Of a DNA stretch of 13,872 nucleotides, positions 9,592 to 10,500 are shown piece by piece. Location of the stretch: IMG/VR virus record IMGVR_UViG_2874915312_000001; one strand, written 5' to 3'. How positions within the stretch are numbered: the first letter of the stretch is position 1; every line of letters starts with the position of its first letter. This DNA is from a virus. Lineage: Duplodnaviria; Heunggongvirae; Uroviricota; Caudoviricetes. The position numbers and the translations under genes are program-made. The notes under the pieces are model-generated. The model saw nothing but the letters and a program-made list of their open reading frames with translations, made no database searches and was not told the origin of the DNA.

Positions 9592-10500
9592 TCAGAATGT
9601 CAGTTTGTCACTGGATTTACCGAATTTGTCAGACATGGCTCCCAGGCCAGCCAGGACATCGACCTGTCGCTGTCGCCCACCTCCGGGAGCGGCTGGCTGT
9701 TGCCAGAAGTCTTCGAAGTGACGATCGGGTCCAAAGAACGTCGCAGCCTGCTTCACGAACTGTGTGCCGGTATTTCCTGTGGCACGTACCCAGGCAGCAT
9801 AGCGTTTCACGCCATCAAGCATGGCTTCAGGTTTTATTCCCTCCCTGAGCCGGGCTTTCCAGGCTTTGAAGGCTGCGGATTTTGAGTTACCACCAGCACG
9901 TTTTGGATATTCCTGCCAGGCCTGTTCAAATTCCGGTGAATATTCCTGTCGGGAAGAACGCGCTGGTGCAGACGCGTCAGCGGATGCGCCAATAGTGTTT
10001 TTACTCTCTGTAGTATTCTCTGAAGTAATCTCTGTTGTATTCTCTGTAAGATCGAAATTGGTTTTCCCTTCTCCGCGGCGAGGGGTTTCCCGTGTCCGCG
10101 GTGAAGGCTTTCCCTCCTCCGCGAAATTGGGTTTTACAGTTTCCCGAAAACGGGTTTCCCCATTTCGGGAAAACTGATTGTTTTCATTGATAATTTCATT
10201 AAGGCGCTCACAATCTATACGGTAGAACATTTTGTGCTCAAGACGCTTGTTGGTTTCAACCAAAATGCCTCTGGACACAAGATGCTTACGCGCTACAGCC
10301 TGTTGTTCAAATGTAAGTCCGGTTTCGTGTTGTATCTCTTCACGCGTTTTATGTACGCCTTCCGCTGCATGTGCTTTATCCTGCCAGTAAAAAATCTGAC
10401 CAAAGAAAATAACAGCGTGCGGACTTCCCATGTATTTAACGAGCCCAGGGTAATAAGCAACCGGATGTCCAAAATCGAGCAGAAGATCAGACGGACGCAT
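9592..10500 (-). CDS. replication initiator, O-like replisome organizer
   Basis: Sits directly upstream of the loader and helicase genes. It has a low-complexity linker (…PRTRETPRRGEGKTNFDLTENTTEITSENTTESKNT…) encoded by iteron-like DNA repeats, as in lambda O. ATG at 10500 with a GGGAGG ribosome-binding site. Confidence 0.65.
   Translation of the reverse strand: MRPSDLLLDFGHPVAYYPGLVKYMGSPHAVIFFGQIFYWQDKAHAAEGVHKTREEIQHETGLTFEQQAVARKHLVSRGILVETNKRLEHKMFYRIDCERLNEIINENNQFSRNGETRFRETVKPNFAEEGKPSPRTRETPRRGEGKTNFDLTENTTEITSENTTESKNTIGASADASAPARSSRQEYSPEFEQAWQEYPKRAGGNSKSAAFKAWKARLREGIKPEAMLDGVKRYAAWVRATGNTGTQFVKQAATFFGPDRHFEDFWQQPAAPGGGRQRQVDVLAGLGAMSDKFGKSSDKLTF
10005..10215. repeat. iteron array plus AT-rich tract inside the O-like gene = probable phage origin of replication
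   Basis: Three ~12-bp repeats (GTAGTATTCTCTG / AAGTAATCTCTG / TTGTATTCTCTG) at 10009-10046. Five GGTTT(T)CCC-containing repeats with ~22-24 bp spacing at ~10061-10170. An AT-rich stretch follows at 10180-10215. Confidence 0.5.

Follow-up and report, generated by a model that had tools for sequence, protein, structure and literature searches.

A probable replication origin of 23-bp iterons and conserved 12-mers inside the initiator gene of an Eru7-type, Stx-phage-like Escherichia coli prophage

Introduction

Does a cluster of short direct repeats within the replication initiator gene of a Stx-phage-like prophage act as its origin of replication, and which part of the cluster would open? The question arises in a 13,872-nucleotide stretch of viral DNA (IMG/VR record IMGVR_UViG_2874915312_000001; hereafter the window), for which an initial annotation had proposed an iteron-type origin embedded in an O-like gene. 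An origin inside an initiator gene is of an already known kind, of which the present locus is one more case. The lambda ori comprises four iterons and an AT-rich region in the middle of gene O, and the replisome-organiser or DnaD-like initiators of phages of Gram-positive bacteria carry the origin inside their own gene (e.g. SPP1 gene 38/oriL). Gene 18 of P22 and gene 18 of phage L also have iterons of their own in mid-coding region (PMC8022706). Among European Stx phages the most widespread replication type is reported to be Eru7, and nothing has been known of the replication proteins of Eru phages (PMC8951638).

Results

The initiator gene and its neighbours

The gene containing the repeats, its two presumed functional domains and the two genes downstream of it are as follows.

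9592–10500, minus strand: O-like replication initiator gene, 302 aa, likely start ATG 10500
10177–10500, minus strand: N-terminal winged-helix domain (aa 1–108; AlphaFold2 model), presumed iteron-binding
9592–9990, minus strand: C-terminal domain of the EFEQAWQEYPKRAGG... type, presumed helicase-loader partner, an exchangeable module
8703–9590, minus strand: DnaC/IstB-like AAA+ helicase loader gene (Pfam IstB_IS21, 1.6e-14; Bac_DnaA, 4.6e-6)
7315–8706, minus strand: DnaB-like replicative helicase gene with an in-frame stop codon at 8302–8304

In the ORF listing, the initiator frame can be extended to a GTG at 10506. With the 'phage replication protein O' CDS of Stx2_EH2201, which starts and ends at the same points, the gene shares 96.6% identity; it is 96.6% identical over its full length to 16 other records, and 95.7% identical over 91% of its length to LC567818, the Eru7 type phage. 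In addition to this nucleotide identity, the window shares with these Stx phages the Rha/Ash ORFs beside the immunity region (10717–13148). By these similarities the replication region is assigned to 'Eru7' of the Stx phages, a classification based on the genes next to cI (Rha/Ash; PMC8951638). A term search of the same paper found no description of an origin, an initiator or an initiator–loader–helicase module with an iteron origin. The loader gene lies directly downstream of the initiator gene. In the helicase gene, Pfam DnaB was matched on 8302–8706 and DnaB_C (5.3e-71) on 7315–8298, and a single ungapped alignment connected the whole to the intact 466-aa gene of Stx2_EH2201, with a glutamine changed to the stop codon in LKDA*NMM. 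The origin may therefore no longer fire in this host.

When compared with PHROG, the initiator matched phrog_270 'replication initiation protein' (2.6e-65) as well as several 'replication initiation O-like' families. It had no match in Pfam or NCBIfam, and the Pfam search of the window protein and its 12 homologs returned no family, the Lambda O family Phage_rep_O included. A profile search of PDB sequences with the initiator found nothing, and the family profile aligned to lambda O with an hhalign probability of 0.1%. In the initiator and ten other initiators carrying the 12-mer block described below, Pfam and NCBIfam left the N-terminal domain uncovered, the sole matches being Phg_2220_C or DnaA_N in some C-terminal parts. 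The term 'O-like' fits the way in which the protein would work, which resembles that of lambda O, and not its sequence, by which membership of the lambda O family was undetectable.

AlphaFold2 modelling of the N-terminal domain (39 homologs; pLDDT 77.6, pTM 0.72) predicted the topology H-b-H-H-b-b-H; this run was used in place of a full-length model (13 sequences) that was unusable at pLDDT 39. Its best Foldseek matches in the PDB were winged-helix DNA binders, all weak (E 0.01–0.1, TM 0.5–0.63), including staphylococcal plasmid Rep–DNA complexes (E 0.018–0.05) and the DnaD N-terminal domain (2v79, E 0.035). Only one winged-helix domain was modelled in the initiator, a second not being evident, and this domain is kept in homologs from E. 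coli to Burkholderia. The linker that follows has no predicted secondary structure and holds the iterons (nt 327–441 of the 909-nt gene), placing the repeat array inside the ORF between N- and C-terminal domains that are both exchangeable. The C-terminal half alone is shared with phiP27 L17 (query 1–403 at 95%), and at least four other C-terminal domains occur on homologs with the same N-terminal domain. The window has the phiP27 kind and not the lambda-type C-terminal domain (PNF..WAN.IRLM...FW..N.LSP.KLR..W), which is found in other members with the same N-terminal domain, e.g. Proteus L008. Among 15 close relatives, variable sites make up 17% of the C-terminal domain versus 2–3% of the upstream half; this substitution map is uninformative on iteron constraint, because the whole N-terminal half is nearly invariant.

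Two repeat arrays in the linker

The 12-bp repeats, 23-bp repeats and AT-rich tract of the initial annotation were all found where it had placed them. Listed in gene direction, the elements are the following.

10176–10215, no strand assigned: AT-rich tract on the promoter-proximal side of the iterons, encoding RLNEIINENNQ
10152–10174, minus strand: iteron unit 1, sense GTTTTCCCGAAATGGGGAAACCC, internal dyad TTTCCC/GGGAAA
10129–10151, minus strand: iteron unit 2, sense GTTTTCGGGAAACTGTAAAACCC, degenerate in register
10106–10128, minus strand: iteron unit 3, sense AATTTCGCGGAGGAGGGAAAGCC
10083–10105, minus strand: iteron unit 4, sense TTCACCGCGGACACGGGAAACCC
10060–10082, minus strand: iteron unit 5, sense CTCGCCGCGGAGAAGGGAAAACC, imperfect palindrome centred on CCGCGG
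10049–10059, no strand assigned: spacer AATTTCGATCT, 11 bp, with a GATC site at 10050–10053
10001–10048, minus strand: 12-mer block, sense TACAGAGAATAC AACAGAGATTAC TTCAGAGAATAC TACAGAGAGTAA, peptide TENTTEITSENTTES, proposed DNA-unwinding/helicase-entry element
10037–10048, 10025–10036, 10013–10024 and, diverged, 10001–10012: 12-mer units in register

The iteron array runs from 10174 to 10060 in gene direction and is of GGGAAAC type and partly palindromic. Tandem Repeats Finder reported a period of 23 (2.7 copies, 10063–10123), and exact copies of GGNTTTCCC occur at 10060, 10083, 10106 and 10152, that is, at offsets of 0, 23, 46 and 92. The unit at 10129 is degenerate, with a displaced copy of TTTCCC at 10140, and one inverted copy (GGGAAA) lies at 10167. 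Five units are thus present, as had been claimed, in a register of exactly 23 bp where the claim had been of spacings of about 22–24 bp. Autocorrelation peaked at lag 23 (0.63) in this array and at lag 12 (0.74) in the 12-bp array. The 115 bp contain six TTTCCC/GGGAAA hexamers, compared with a maximum of three in 1000 dinucleotide shuffles. Units 1 and 2 together form an inverted repeat with 15-nt arms, and the dyad symmetry of the iterons is strong (single-strand fold z -3.4 and -3.9; 0 of 200 shuffles equally stable). The GGGAAA copies fall in codon phases 2, 2, 3, 2 and 1, giving GET, RET, EGK, RET and GK. Because GGGAAA is read in three frames and 23 is not a multiple of 3, the iterons are a DNA repeat and not a peptide repeat.

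For the 12-bp array, Tandem Repeats Finder gave 3.7 copies at 10005–10048 (score 67), and a repeat search of the window gave three 21-nt copies with spacings of 12 and 12. Allowing up to two mismatches, TCTCTGTWGTAWT matched at 10005, 10017 and 10029, and none of 200 shuffles had four hits. The array, annotated as three copies, is real and has four units in register, with that at 10001–10012 more diverged; their consensus in gene direction is TACWACAGAGAn. The TTCGATC of the spacer is kept in homologs from Yersinia, Morganella, Proteus and Serratia. Elsewhere in the window, which covers the early region, no repeat array scored comparably.

GC content falls to 30% at 10160–10219 and 32.5% at 10000–10059, the region of the 12-mer block. 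Ranked by duplex stability against all 40-mers of the window, the AT tract lies in the least stable 1% and the block in the least stable 0.2%. The annotated order had been repeats and then an AT-rich tract; these elements exist, and on the minus strand of the gene they run from AT tract to iterons to 12-mers. No IHF consensus site was found in the origin. DnaA boxes (TTWTNCACA, at most one mismatch) numbered 24 in the window versus 23.6 expected, with none in 9600–10460, and a scan of 9500–10800 for promoters and terminators was at chance level. Rfam had no family for 9900–10300, even at E up to 1, and its gathering-threshold scan of the whole window detected only tRNAs, C4 and isrK, all elsewhere.

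Conservation of the 23-bp register

Related loci were collected as carriers of the 12-mer block, and the 170 nt upstream were examined for repeats. In this interval the 115 loci contained 3–6 copies of a locus-specific 9-mer. Of approximately 325 copy-to-copy spacings, 216 were 23, 37 were 24 and 31 were 46, independently of the sequence of the repeat. The initial annotation had named two grounds on which an origin might be doubted, namely a periodicity not conserved among homologs and a repetitive peptide with synonymous drift. The 23-bp spacing is kept even across unrelated iteron sequences, and the peptide explanation is ruled out by the three-frame reading of GGGAAA together with the 23-nt period. 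From clade to clade the spacing is maintained, while the peptide encoded by the iteron region is not.

Iterons were shared by 0–2% of pairs with N-terminal identity below 50% and by 80–100% of those at 70% or above. They were also shared in all 62 pairs that combined an N-terminal identity of at least 85% with a C-terminal identity below 40%. To judge from these comparisons, iteron sequence tracks the N-terminal winged-helix domain and not the C-terminal domain. The periodicity, the three-frame reading and this co-variation support the proposal of an iteron-type origin in the linker of an O-like initiator gene.

Selection on the DNA of the 12-mer block

In eight loci found via N-terminal peptides, Glu within the block was encoded by GAG in 20/20 cases (42% elsewhere in the genes), Thr by ACA or ACT in 48/49 (41% elsewhere), Ile by ATT in 10/10 and Asn by AAT in 8/8. 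By comparison, identical amino acids in the N-terminal domain of these genes had the same codon in only 19–59%. A further 54 distinct genes gave GAG in 154/154 and ACA/ACT in 307/313, all these fixed-codon counts being phylogenetically non-independent, and the changes seen inside the block of the 54 genes were amino-acid-altering. Two Vibrio phages, X29 and 10N.286.54.F2, have copies of the motif 11 nt apart, and translation passes through these in two frames (TETTQRLPETT). The Bacillus plasmid pBSG3, which represents a single plasmid family, has three iterons (spacing 23 and 22) and three perfect 12-mers in non-coding DNA, the TEITTE frame there lacking a start codon and being broken by many stops.

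The block is conserved in phages of hosts as distant as Proteobacteria, Bacillus, Staphylococcus and Synechococcus. Staphylococcus phage 37 and Bacillus phage BtCS33 have 23-bp repeats followed by the same 12-mers, and the tblastn homologs of the N-terminal domain of Staphylococcus phage 37 ORF012 were initiators of E. coli, Vibrio, Pseudomonas, Acinetobacter and Synechococcus phages. The 12-mers are not, then, a second phage-specific family of iterons, as had been thought; they are a near-universal module common to initiators with different iterons. These data indicate that the DNA of the block is itself under selection, and that the 12-mers are a sequence-specific DNA element, not mere AT-rich filler. 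Frequent recombination at the joint between the N- and C-terminal domains could account for some of the block's conservation.

Literature searches with the motif ACAGAGATTAC or TEITTE returned unrelated primers or names only, and the literature found on iterons in Stx/Eru phages did not describe this origin; coverage of subscription journals was thin, which makes both absences weak evidence. The cross-phylum 12-mer element may not have been described previously.

The element expected to unwind

Because the gene is on the minus strand, it is the 12-mer block that lies downstream of the iterons, where lambda has its AT-rich element. In lambda's gene this AT-rich region, at the matching gene position, is the least stable 30-mer, and an alignment anchored on the shared lambda-type C-terminal domain sets DTKDTITKEKRKDY, encoded by the lambda AT-rich region, opposite TENTTEITTENKT. 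Across 14 initiators, the block was the least stable 30-mer of the gene in nine, including all the GC-rich ones, and neither of its strands, taken singly, is structured (dG -1.3 and -1.5, z +0.4 and +0.3). The block, rather than 10176–10215, is most likely the lambda-equivalent unwinding element. The initial comparison with the lambda ori holds for the mid-gene iterons and the presence of an AT-rich element, with the block and not the annotated tract as the counterpart of lambda's.

Two further readings of the 12-mers were considered and had no support: primase start sites, with CTG on the antisense and CTA on the sense strand of every unit, and a DnaA-trio-like motif, TAG TAA on the antisense strand. 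In lambda itself, TCAGAGAAT, just to the right of the AT-rich region, is apparently similar to the 12-mer core.

Alternative explanations

Were the AT tract at 10176–10215 the unwinding element, the 12-mers would be binding sites of another class, serving either control or a second protein, and the duplex would not open there. In the window this tract does hold the gene's least stable 30-mer (gene nt 305; dG -33.2 vs -34.2 for the block), besides ranking among the least stable 1% of 40-mers. However, in the model it encodes the last helix of the folded N-terminal domain, and in Burkholderia and Trinickia homologs it is not AT-rich, whereas the block there is both AT-rich and least stable. In Pseudomonas, Synechococcus and Burkholderia DC1 phages, too, no other 30-mer is as unstable as that of the block, and the AT-rich region of lambda lies downstream of the iterons in gene orientation, aligned with the block; we consider unwinding at the tract unlikely. 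Another reading is that the block owes its conservation chiefly to recombination: as a joint between the N- and C-terminal domains it would let phages exchange origin- and loader-specificity modules, and it would take no direct part in initiation. Mosaic boundaries do fall there: mEp460 has only 40 bp of the block in common (97.5%), phiP27 shares the gene solely from just past it, the variable sites of close relatives jump from 2–3% to 17% at the same point, 101 genes contain 17 N-terminal/C-terminal combinations, and the block alone is matched in ~1,400 further complete E. coli genomes. Yet selection for evolvability is weak and would not fix synonymous sites across Proteobacteria, Bacillus, Staphylococcus and Synechococcus phages, and in pBSG3 the block is kept beside iterons in a non-coding context with no protein domains to join. 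Its position is, moreover, that of the least stable duplex and of the unwinding region in lambda. Joint and initiation roles are not mutually exclusive, and a block retained chiefly as a joint is quite unlikely.

A different possibility is that initiator binding at the 23-bp repeats serves to regulate the initiator itself, control copy number or exclude related phages, with replication starting elsewhere in the phage. Lambda iterons on a plasmid silence the replication of related phages (PMC3349717), plasmid iterons also have control roles, and the evidence for initiation at the 23-bp repeats is indirect. Against this, the 13.9-kb window covers the early region and has no second array of comparable score, the 23-bp array adjoins the least stable duplex, and the same grammar of iterons followed by low-stability repeats in the middle of an initiator gene is a proven origin in lambda. 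The iteron–block module also persists in pBSG3 without the gene, and a control role would add to an origin role, not replace it, so that we see little likelihood of an origin elsewhere. That the repeats merely reflect a repetitive, low-complexity linker peptide with no function as DNA is extremely improbable: the 12-bp repeats are in frame (encoding TENT/TEIT/SENT/TES) and the linker is predicted to be unstructured, but the 23-bp units, in three reading phases, cannot encode a peptide repeat, and the iteron-region peptide varies between clades while the spacing holds. The block, for its part, combines fixed synonymous positions with tolerated amino-acid changes, uses two reading frames in Vibrio phages and lies in non-coding DNA in pBSG3.

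Discussion

Positions 10001–10215 are very probably the replication origin of a lambdoid, Eru7-type, Stx-phage-like E. coli prophage, placed in the unstructured linker of its own initiator gene. The data show how this region is built and that it is conserved, that its iterons co-vary with the N-terminal domain, and that selection acts on the block as DNA.

For binding, unwinding and helicase loading, we infer the following course. Dimers of the N-terminal winged-helix domain of the initiator would bind the five 23-bp-spaced units (10060–10174), and the bound initiator would build a wrapped nucleoprotein complex like lambda's O-some. Strain would then open the least stable duplex next to this complex, which is most likely the 12-mer block (10001–10048) on the promoter-distal side, and the exchangeable C-terminal domain would recruit the DnaC-like loader and the DnaB-like helicase, both products of the phage genes that follow. 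The 12-mers would likely offer strand-specific single-strand contacts to the initiator oligomer or to a universal host replication protein. A role of the locus as an incompatibility determinant, also suggested in the initial annotation, is plausible by analogy.

The nearest known systems are the lambda ori in gene O and the six-iteron origins of lambda-type Stx phages. As in lambda, the iterons are partly palindromic, lie ~20–24 bp apart and occupy a similar part of the gene (nt 349–433 in lambda, 327–441 here), the low-stability element is promoter-distal (starting at about nt 446 in lambda and 453 here), and the N-terminal domain tracks the iterons and the C-terminal domain the loader. Unlike lambda O, the present initiator would act with a DnaC-like loader and a phage DnaB-like helicase, in place of lambda P and host DnaB, and it has no detectable homology to O. 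The five units keep a strict 23-bp register, whereas lambda's spacings are 20, 24 and 23, and a precise, conserved 12-bp repeat stands where lambda has a purine-rich AT tract. P22 and phage L resemble the window in having distantly related lambdoid initiators with mid-gene repeats of their own and a phage DnaB-type helicase, and differ, by their published description, in having four ~20-bp repeats (P22) and six 11-bp repeats (L) (PMC8022706).

Winged-helix Rep proteins of plasmids bind iteron dsDNA and, strand-specifically, the repeated 13-mers of the unwinding element (PMC4081077). The RK2 oriV/TrfA and F/RepE systems have a winged-helix initiator, direct repeats bound as dsDNA and an adjacent AT-rich element, to which correspond, in the present locus, an initiator with one putative winged-helix domain, direct repeats that would be bound in the same way and the AT-rich block. 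In the plasmids the unwinding element is made up of repeated 12–13-mers that cannot vary in sequence and that Rep contacts as ssDNA of one particular strand (PMC4081077). The window likewise has repeated, sequence-specific units of this length, four 12-mers conserved at the DNA level, and by analogy the RK2/F Rep systems offer the best mechanistic model for the block. Plasmid origins differ in being intergenic and usually having DnaA boxes, of which none beyond chance is present here; Rep has two winged-helix domains, whereas only one was modelled in the initiator, and there is no sequence similarity to Rep proteins. The replisome-organiser or DnaD-like initiators of Gram-positive phages such as SPP1 have the same gene architecture; the match to the DnaD fold is weak.

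We propose, tentatively, that the locus belongs to one large family of winged-helix initiators, found in phages of Enterobacterales, Vibrio, Pseudomonas, Acinetobacter, Burkholderia, Xanthomonas, Bacillus, Staphylococcus and Synechococcus, with a fixed and apparently undescribed grammar: n phage-specific iterons in strict 23-bp register and then, within ~11 bp, 2–5 copies of a near-invariant 11–12-bp TACWACAGAGAn selected as DNA (Glu always GAG, never GAA). In this proposal the 12-mers would form a sequence-specific unwinding or loading element, read by the sole constant partner, whether a replication protein common to all hosts or a conserved surface on the initiator's N-terminal domain, and would also be the joint where phages reshuffle their modules for origin and loader specificity.

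The origin, its initiator and the loader–helicase pair give work on prophage induction and toxin-gene amplification a concrete target. If upheld, the 12-mer block would be a clean case of one DNA stretch selected both as protein and as cis element, and the 23-bp register with the 12-mer block would be a signature by which origins may be located in a large share of the temperate phages of many phyla.

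A predicted replication origin within the initiator gene

The repeats lie within the gene of a 302-aa initiator, which sits in the following arrangement.

9592–10506, minus strand: initiator ORF, enclosing the repeats
8703–9590, minus strand: DnaC/IstB-like ATPase gene, downstream of the initiator
7315–8706, minus strand: DnaB-like helicase gene, downstream of the initiator
10717–11577 and 11574–13148, in tandem: two Rha/Ash genes, upstream of the initiator

The 302-aa length follows from the ATG at 10500, the start used in homologs and annotated for the CDS of an Stx phage with 96.6% identity. 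The initiator matched PHROGs 'replication initiation protein' and 'replication initiation O-like' families (phrog_270, 2.6e-65), and no Pfam or NCBIfam model.

Tandem Repeats Finder identified a 12-bp array at 10005–10048 (3.7 copies) and a 23-bp array at 10063–10123, and autocorrelation gave sharp peaks at lags of 23 and 12. GGNTTTCCC occurs exactly at 10060, 10083, 10106 and 10152 (offsets 0, 23, 46 and 92), while the unit at 10129 is degenerate and forms an inverted repeat with the unit at 10152 (15-nt arms). TTTCCC/GGGAAA hexamers number six per 115 bp, versus a maximum of three in 1000 dinucleotide shuffles. The GC-rich iterons are flanked by two AT-rich troughs, 10000–10059 (32.5% GC) and 10160–10219 (30% GC). 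These arrays, exact repeats and troughs bear out the two repeat families and the AT-rich tract of the initial annotation. Its placing of that tract after the repeats holds on the plus strand and not in the direction of the gene, since the gene runs the opposite way: read with the gene, the order is the AT tract (10176–10215), five 23-bp units, an 11-bp spacer with GATC, and four 12-mers (the 12-mer block).

A repetitive peptide with drifting codons does not account for the repeats. Since 23 is not a multiple of 3, and GGGAAA starts at codon positions 2, 2, 3, 2 and 1 in the five units (encoding GET, RET, EGK, RET and GK) and thus falls in three phases, the 23-bp repetition belongs to the DNA. 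Dyad symmetry in the array is strong (single-strand fold z −3.4 and −3.9; 0/200 shuffles equally stable); lambda iterons are likewise imperfect inverted repeats. The GATC in the spacer that parts the iterons from the 12-mers (10050–10053, within TTCGATC(T/C)TACAGAG) is retained at that position in Yersinia, Morganella, Proteus and Serratia homologs (L004, L006, L008, L009), and Dam/SeqA control may act there.

Iteron sequence follows the N-terminal domain

Homologs of the initiator N-terminal domain were retrieved with N-terminal peptide patterns from Yersinia, Morganella, Serratia, Proteus, Burkholderia and Trinickia genomes. GGGAAAC-like units were present at the matching place in the Yersinia, Morganella and Serratia homologs, and related TGCGGAAAnCGCA units in those of Burkholderia and Trinickia; the peptide encoded by this stretch varies from clade to clade. 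A pattern scan of viral contigs for the 12-mer block gave at least 120 loci, in all of which the block lies ~140–200 codons into a ~300-aa ORF. Three to six copies of a locus-specific 9-mer were found within 170 nt upstream in 75 of the 86 distinct loci (mean of 1.8 copies in control segments of the same loci), and these 9-mers are unrelated from group to group (GGGAAACCC, AGGTCAAAA, CAATTTGTC, GCAACTTGC, TGCACTCAT and others). Of ~325 copy-to-copy spacings, 216 were 23 bp, 37 were 24 bp and 31 were 46 bp, so that the periodicity, whose lack among homologs the initial annotation would have taken as refuting its reading, is conserved among homologs, across unrelated 9-mers. Iterons were common to 0–2% of pairs with below 50% N-terminal identity, to 80–100% of pairs at 70% or above, and to 62/62 pairs that combine the same N-terminal with an unrelated C-terminal domain. 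Iteron sequence therefore tracks the N-terminal domain.

Several natural variants were also seen. Two E. coli proteins are in-frame variants, one lacking 20 aa (P0008; 60 nt, iteron units 1–2) and one lacking 30 aa and extending into the N-terminal domain (P0013); such natural in-frame origin variants are reminiscent of the in-frame ori deletions of lambda. Loci L144 and L149 each carry one additional 12-mer. phiP27 L17 (L002, 2890–3095) has repeats of its own, of CAGATTCTGAAGGGTCA type; the place of the 12-mer block is taken by CTTGCGGATCATGTTTT, present two to three times and with a GATC in every copy. In mEp390 (L219), Providencia phage PSTRCR_117lys (L220) and Klebsiella phage ST405-OXA48phi1.2 (L221), iteron spacing is 22 or 45 bp, not 23, and the iterons are followed at about gene nt 480–545 by a variant block, TATACAGATCTTAAAACAGATCATAAC, with a ~12-nt period, the peptide YLYTDLKTDHN and a GATC Dam site per unit.

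The 12-mer block is shared by phages with unrelated iterons

The initial annotation had listed the 12-mers as one of two families of short direct repeats. Their presence in phages with unrelated iterons shows that they do not form a second, phage-specific iteron family. By megablast, mEp460 and several other phages match the initiator gene over 40 bp only, which are the 12-mers (97.5%), and phiP27 matches the C-terminal half only, from just past the 12-mers. A 65-bp block query returned 120 phage records, with annotated matches mostly in replication-initiator genes and hosts that include Escherichia, Klebsiella, Acinetobacter, Pseudomonas, Burkholderia, Xanthomonas, Vibrio, Erwinia, Bacillus, Staphylococcus and Synechococcus. 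In all six records inspected, ACAGAGAWTAC repeats come after 23-bp repeats, and this holds even where the gene has 58–63% GC.

Codon use within the block is nearly invariant. In the eight loci found via the N-terminal domain, block Glu was GAG in 20/20 (42% elsewhere in the genes), Thr was ACA/ACT in 48/49 (41% elsewhere), Ile was ATT in 10/10 and Asn was AAT in 8/8; where these genes encode identical amino acids in the N-terminal domain, the codon agreed in only 19–59% of cases. This codon use recurs in 54 further distinct genes (GAG 154/154), and such differences as they show in the block replace one residue by another (E to K, Y or D; N to S; I to N or T). Neither set of codon counts is phylogenetically independent. 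In Vibrio phages X29 (L222, gene nt 405–450) and 10N.286.54.F2 (L223, gene nt 378–410), ACAGAGAYTAC recurs at 11-nt rather than 12-nt spacing, so that its copies are read in two frames (peptide TETTQRLPETT). Finally, the Bacillus amyloliquefaciens plasmid pBSG3 (L218, NC_014104; 746–845) carries three CTACAGGGAAA units at 746, 769 and 791 (spacing 23 and 22), then three perfect 12-mers (ACAGAGATTACT x3), upstream of a rolling-circle rep gene. This segment has no initiator ORF, and its TEITTE frame contains stops and has no start codon. Taken together, codon use, the 54 further genes, the reading in two frames and pBSG3 say that the DNA of the block is itself selected. GAG is used consistently although GAA would be richer in AT, which points to a specific sequence and not to low stability alone. 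Related 8.4-kb Bacillus velezensis plasmids also match. The pBSG3 segment could be a phage-type origin that the plasmid retains so as to hitch-hike on a phage or interfere with one.

Probable role of the 12-mer block

For 40-mers, duplex stability in the gene is lowest at the block (top 0.2% of the window for low stability). For 30-mers, the lowest value of all falls in the block in 9 of the 14 initiators compared, and these 9 take in each of the GC-rich genes. In lambda the least stable 30-mer is the AT-rich region, at the same gene coordinate, and when sequences are aligned from the lambda-type C-terminal domain that they share, the peptide encoded by that region, DTKDTITKEKRKDY, falls opposite TENTTEITTENKT. 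Both single strands of the block are unstructured. For winged-helix plasmid Reps, the iterons are bound double-stranded and the repeated 13-mers of the unwinding element single-stranded, with strand specificity, and all of the 13-mer repeats are needed (PMC4081077). Given its low stability, its correspondence to the lambda AT-rich region, its unstructured strands and this plasmid precedent, the block would act as an unwinding and helicase-entry element. Phages that share the block differ in host, in loader and in C-terminal domain; its constant partner would therefore be the initiator N-terminal domain family or a universal host protein. Lambda (L131, locus 520–590) also has TCAGAGAAT, identical to the core of one window 12-mer (TTCAGAGAATAC), just right of its AT-rich region, and ACAAAAGA twice within that region; these may be a degenerate relic of the block.

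Two other readings concern the block's part in the origin. A recombination joint at the block fits the mosaic structure of these genes: among 15 close relatives, variable sites make up 2–3% of the N-terminal half, with iterons and block, versus 17% of the C-terminal half, and 17 pairings of N- and C-terminal domains were counted in 101 genes with the block. Complete origins of this type occur in 101/5426 complete E. coli genomes, and ~1,400 more match, in the sampled rows mostly through the 40-bp block alone, in genes whose annotation reads hypothetical protein or phage replication protein O. A joint role alone, however, fails to explain the fixed codons, their recurrence in the 54 genes, the two-frame reading or the pBSG3 setting. 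That the AT tract at 10176–10215 serves as the unwinding element in place of the block is improbable: it is marginally less stable than the block in this window, but the corresponding stretch in Burkholderia and Trinickia homologs is not rich in AT, and in the structural model the tract would encode the last helix of the folded N-terminal domain.

Domains of the initiator

The AlphaFold model of residues 1–108 (39 homologs; pLDDT 77.6) has a helix-strand-helix-helix-strand-strand-helix order. Its best Foldseek matches in the PDB, although weak (E 0.01–0.1), were all winged-helix DNA binders, including staphylococcal plasmid Rep–DNA complexes and the DnaD N-terminal domain. No structure is predicted for the linker (about residues 108–190). 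At least four different C-terminal domains are joined to this N-terminal domain among the homologs; one of them, the lambda-type domain, is also found in mEp460, a Providencia phage and Bacillus phage BtCS33. In the latter, a Bacillus thuringiensis phage, it lies in ORF36 (L133; alignment A3) as KEPNFEKWANEFRLIRERD...FWKKNILSPSKLRKQWDRL, so that this loader-interaction domain of lambda O is found in phages of Gram-positive as well as Gram-negative bacteria. A profile of the initiator family showed no similarity to lambda O, and the initiator, judged by sequence, is thus O-like in its predicted working but set outside the lambda O family.

Relation to Stx phages and wider significance

The closest DNA matches were Stx1a-, Stx2a- and Stx2d-converting phages, among them LC567818, the type example of the Eru7 replication region. 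Eru7 was defined via the Rha/Ash genes beside cI, in a paper that mentions no iterons and states that nothing is known of Eru replication proteins (PMC8951638). An in-frame stop at 8302–8304 (minus strand) splits the DnaB-like helicase gene (LKDA*NMM versus LKDAQNMM in Stx2_EH2201), which aligns without gaps across the stop with the intact 466-aa Stx2_EH2201 gene (88.8% identity). Because of this stop the prophage may not replicate, and the replication module of this copy is possibly defective.

Within or just upstream of the tandem Rha/Ash genes lie two copies each of C4 antisense RNA (11335–11422 and 11991–12078, minus strand; 80 bits) and isrK Hfq-binding RNA (11447–11523 and 12103–12179, minus strand; 62 bits), pairs that look like a duplicated c4-ant antirepressor control module of P1/P7 type. 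Four consecutive tRNA genes at 6010–6317 (minus strand; Rfam, 56–70 bits) agree with the cluster of tRNA genes located upstream of the toxin genes in Stx phages.

From their sequence, the repeats are predicted to be a genuine origin. Its kind, with iterons and an unwinding element lying inside the initiator gene, is known already, and the origin of this phage group had not been pointed out before. Although the 12-mer motif or the 23-bp rule may already be in the older literature on lambdoid or Gram-positive phage origins, the wider interest lies in a 12-mer element that crosses phyla and in the 23-bp register that accompanies it.
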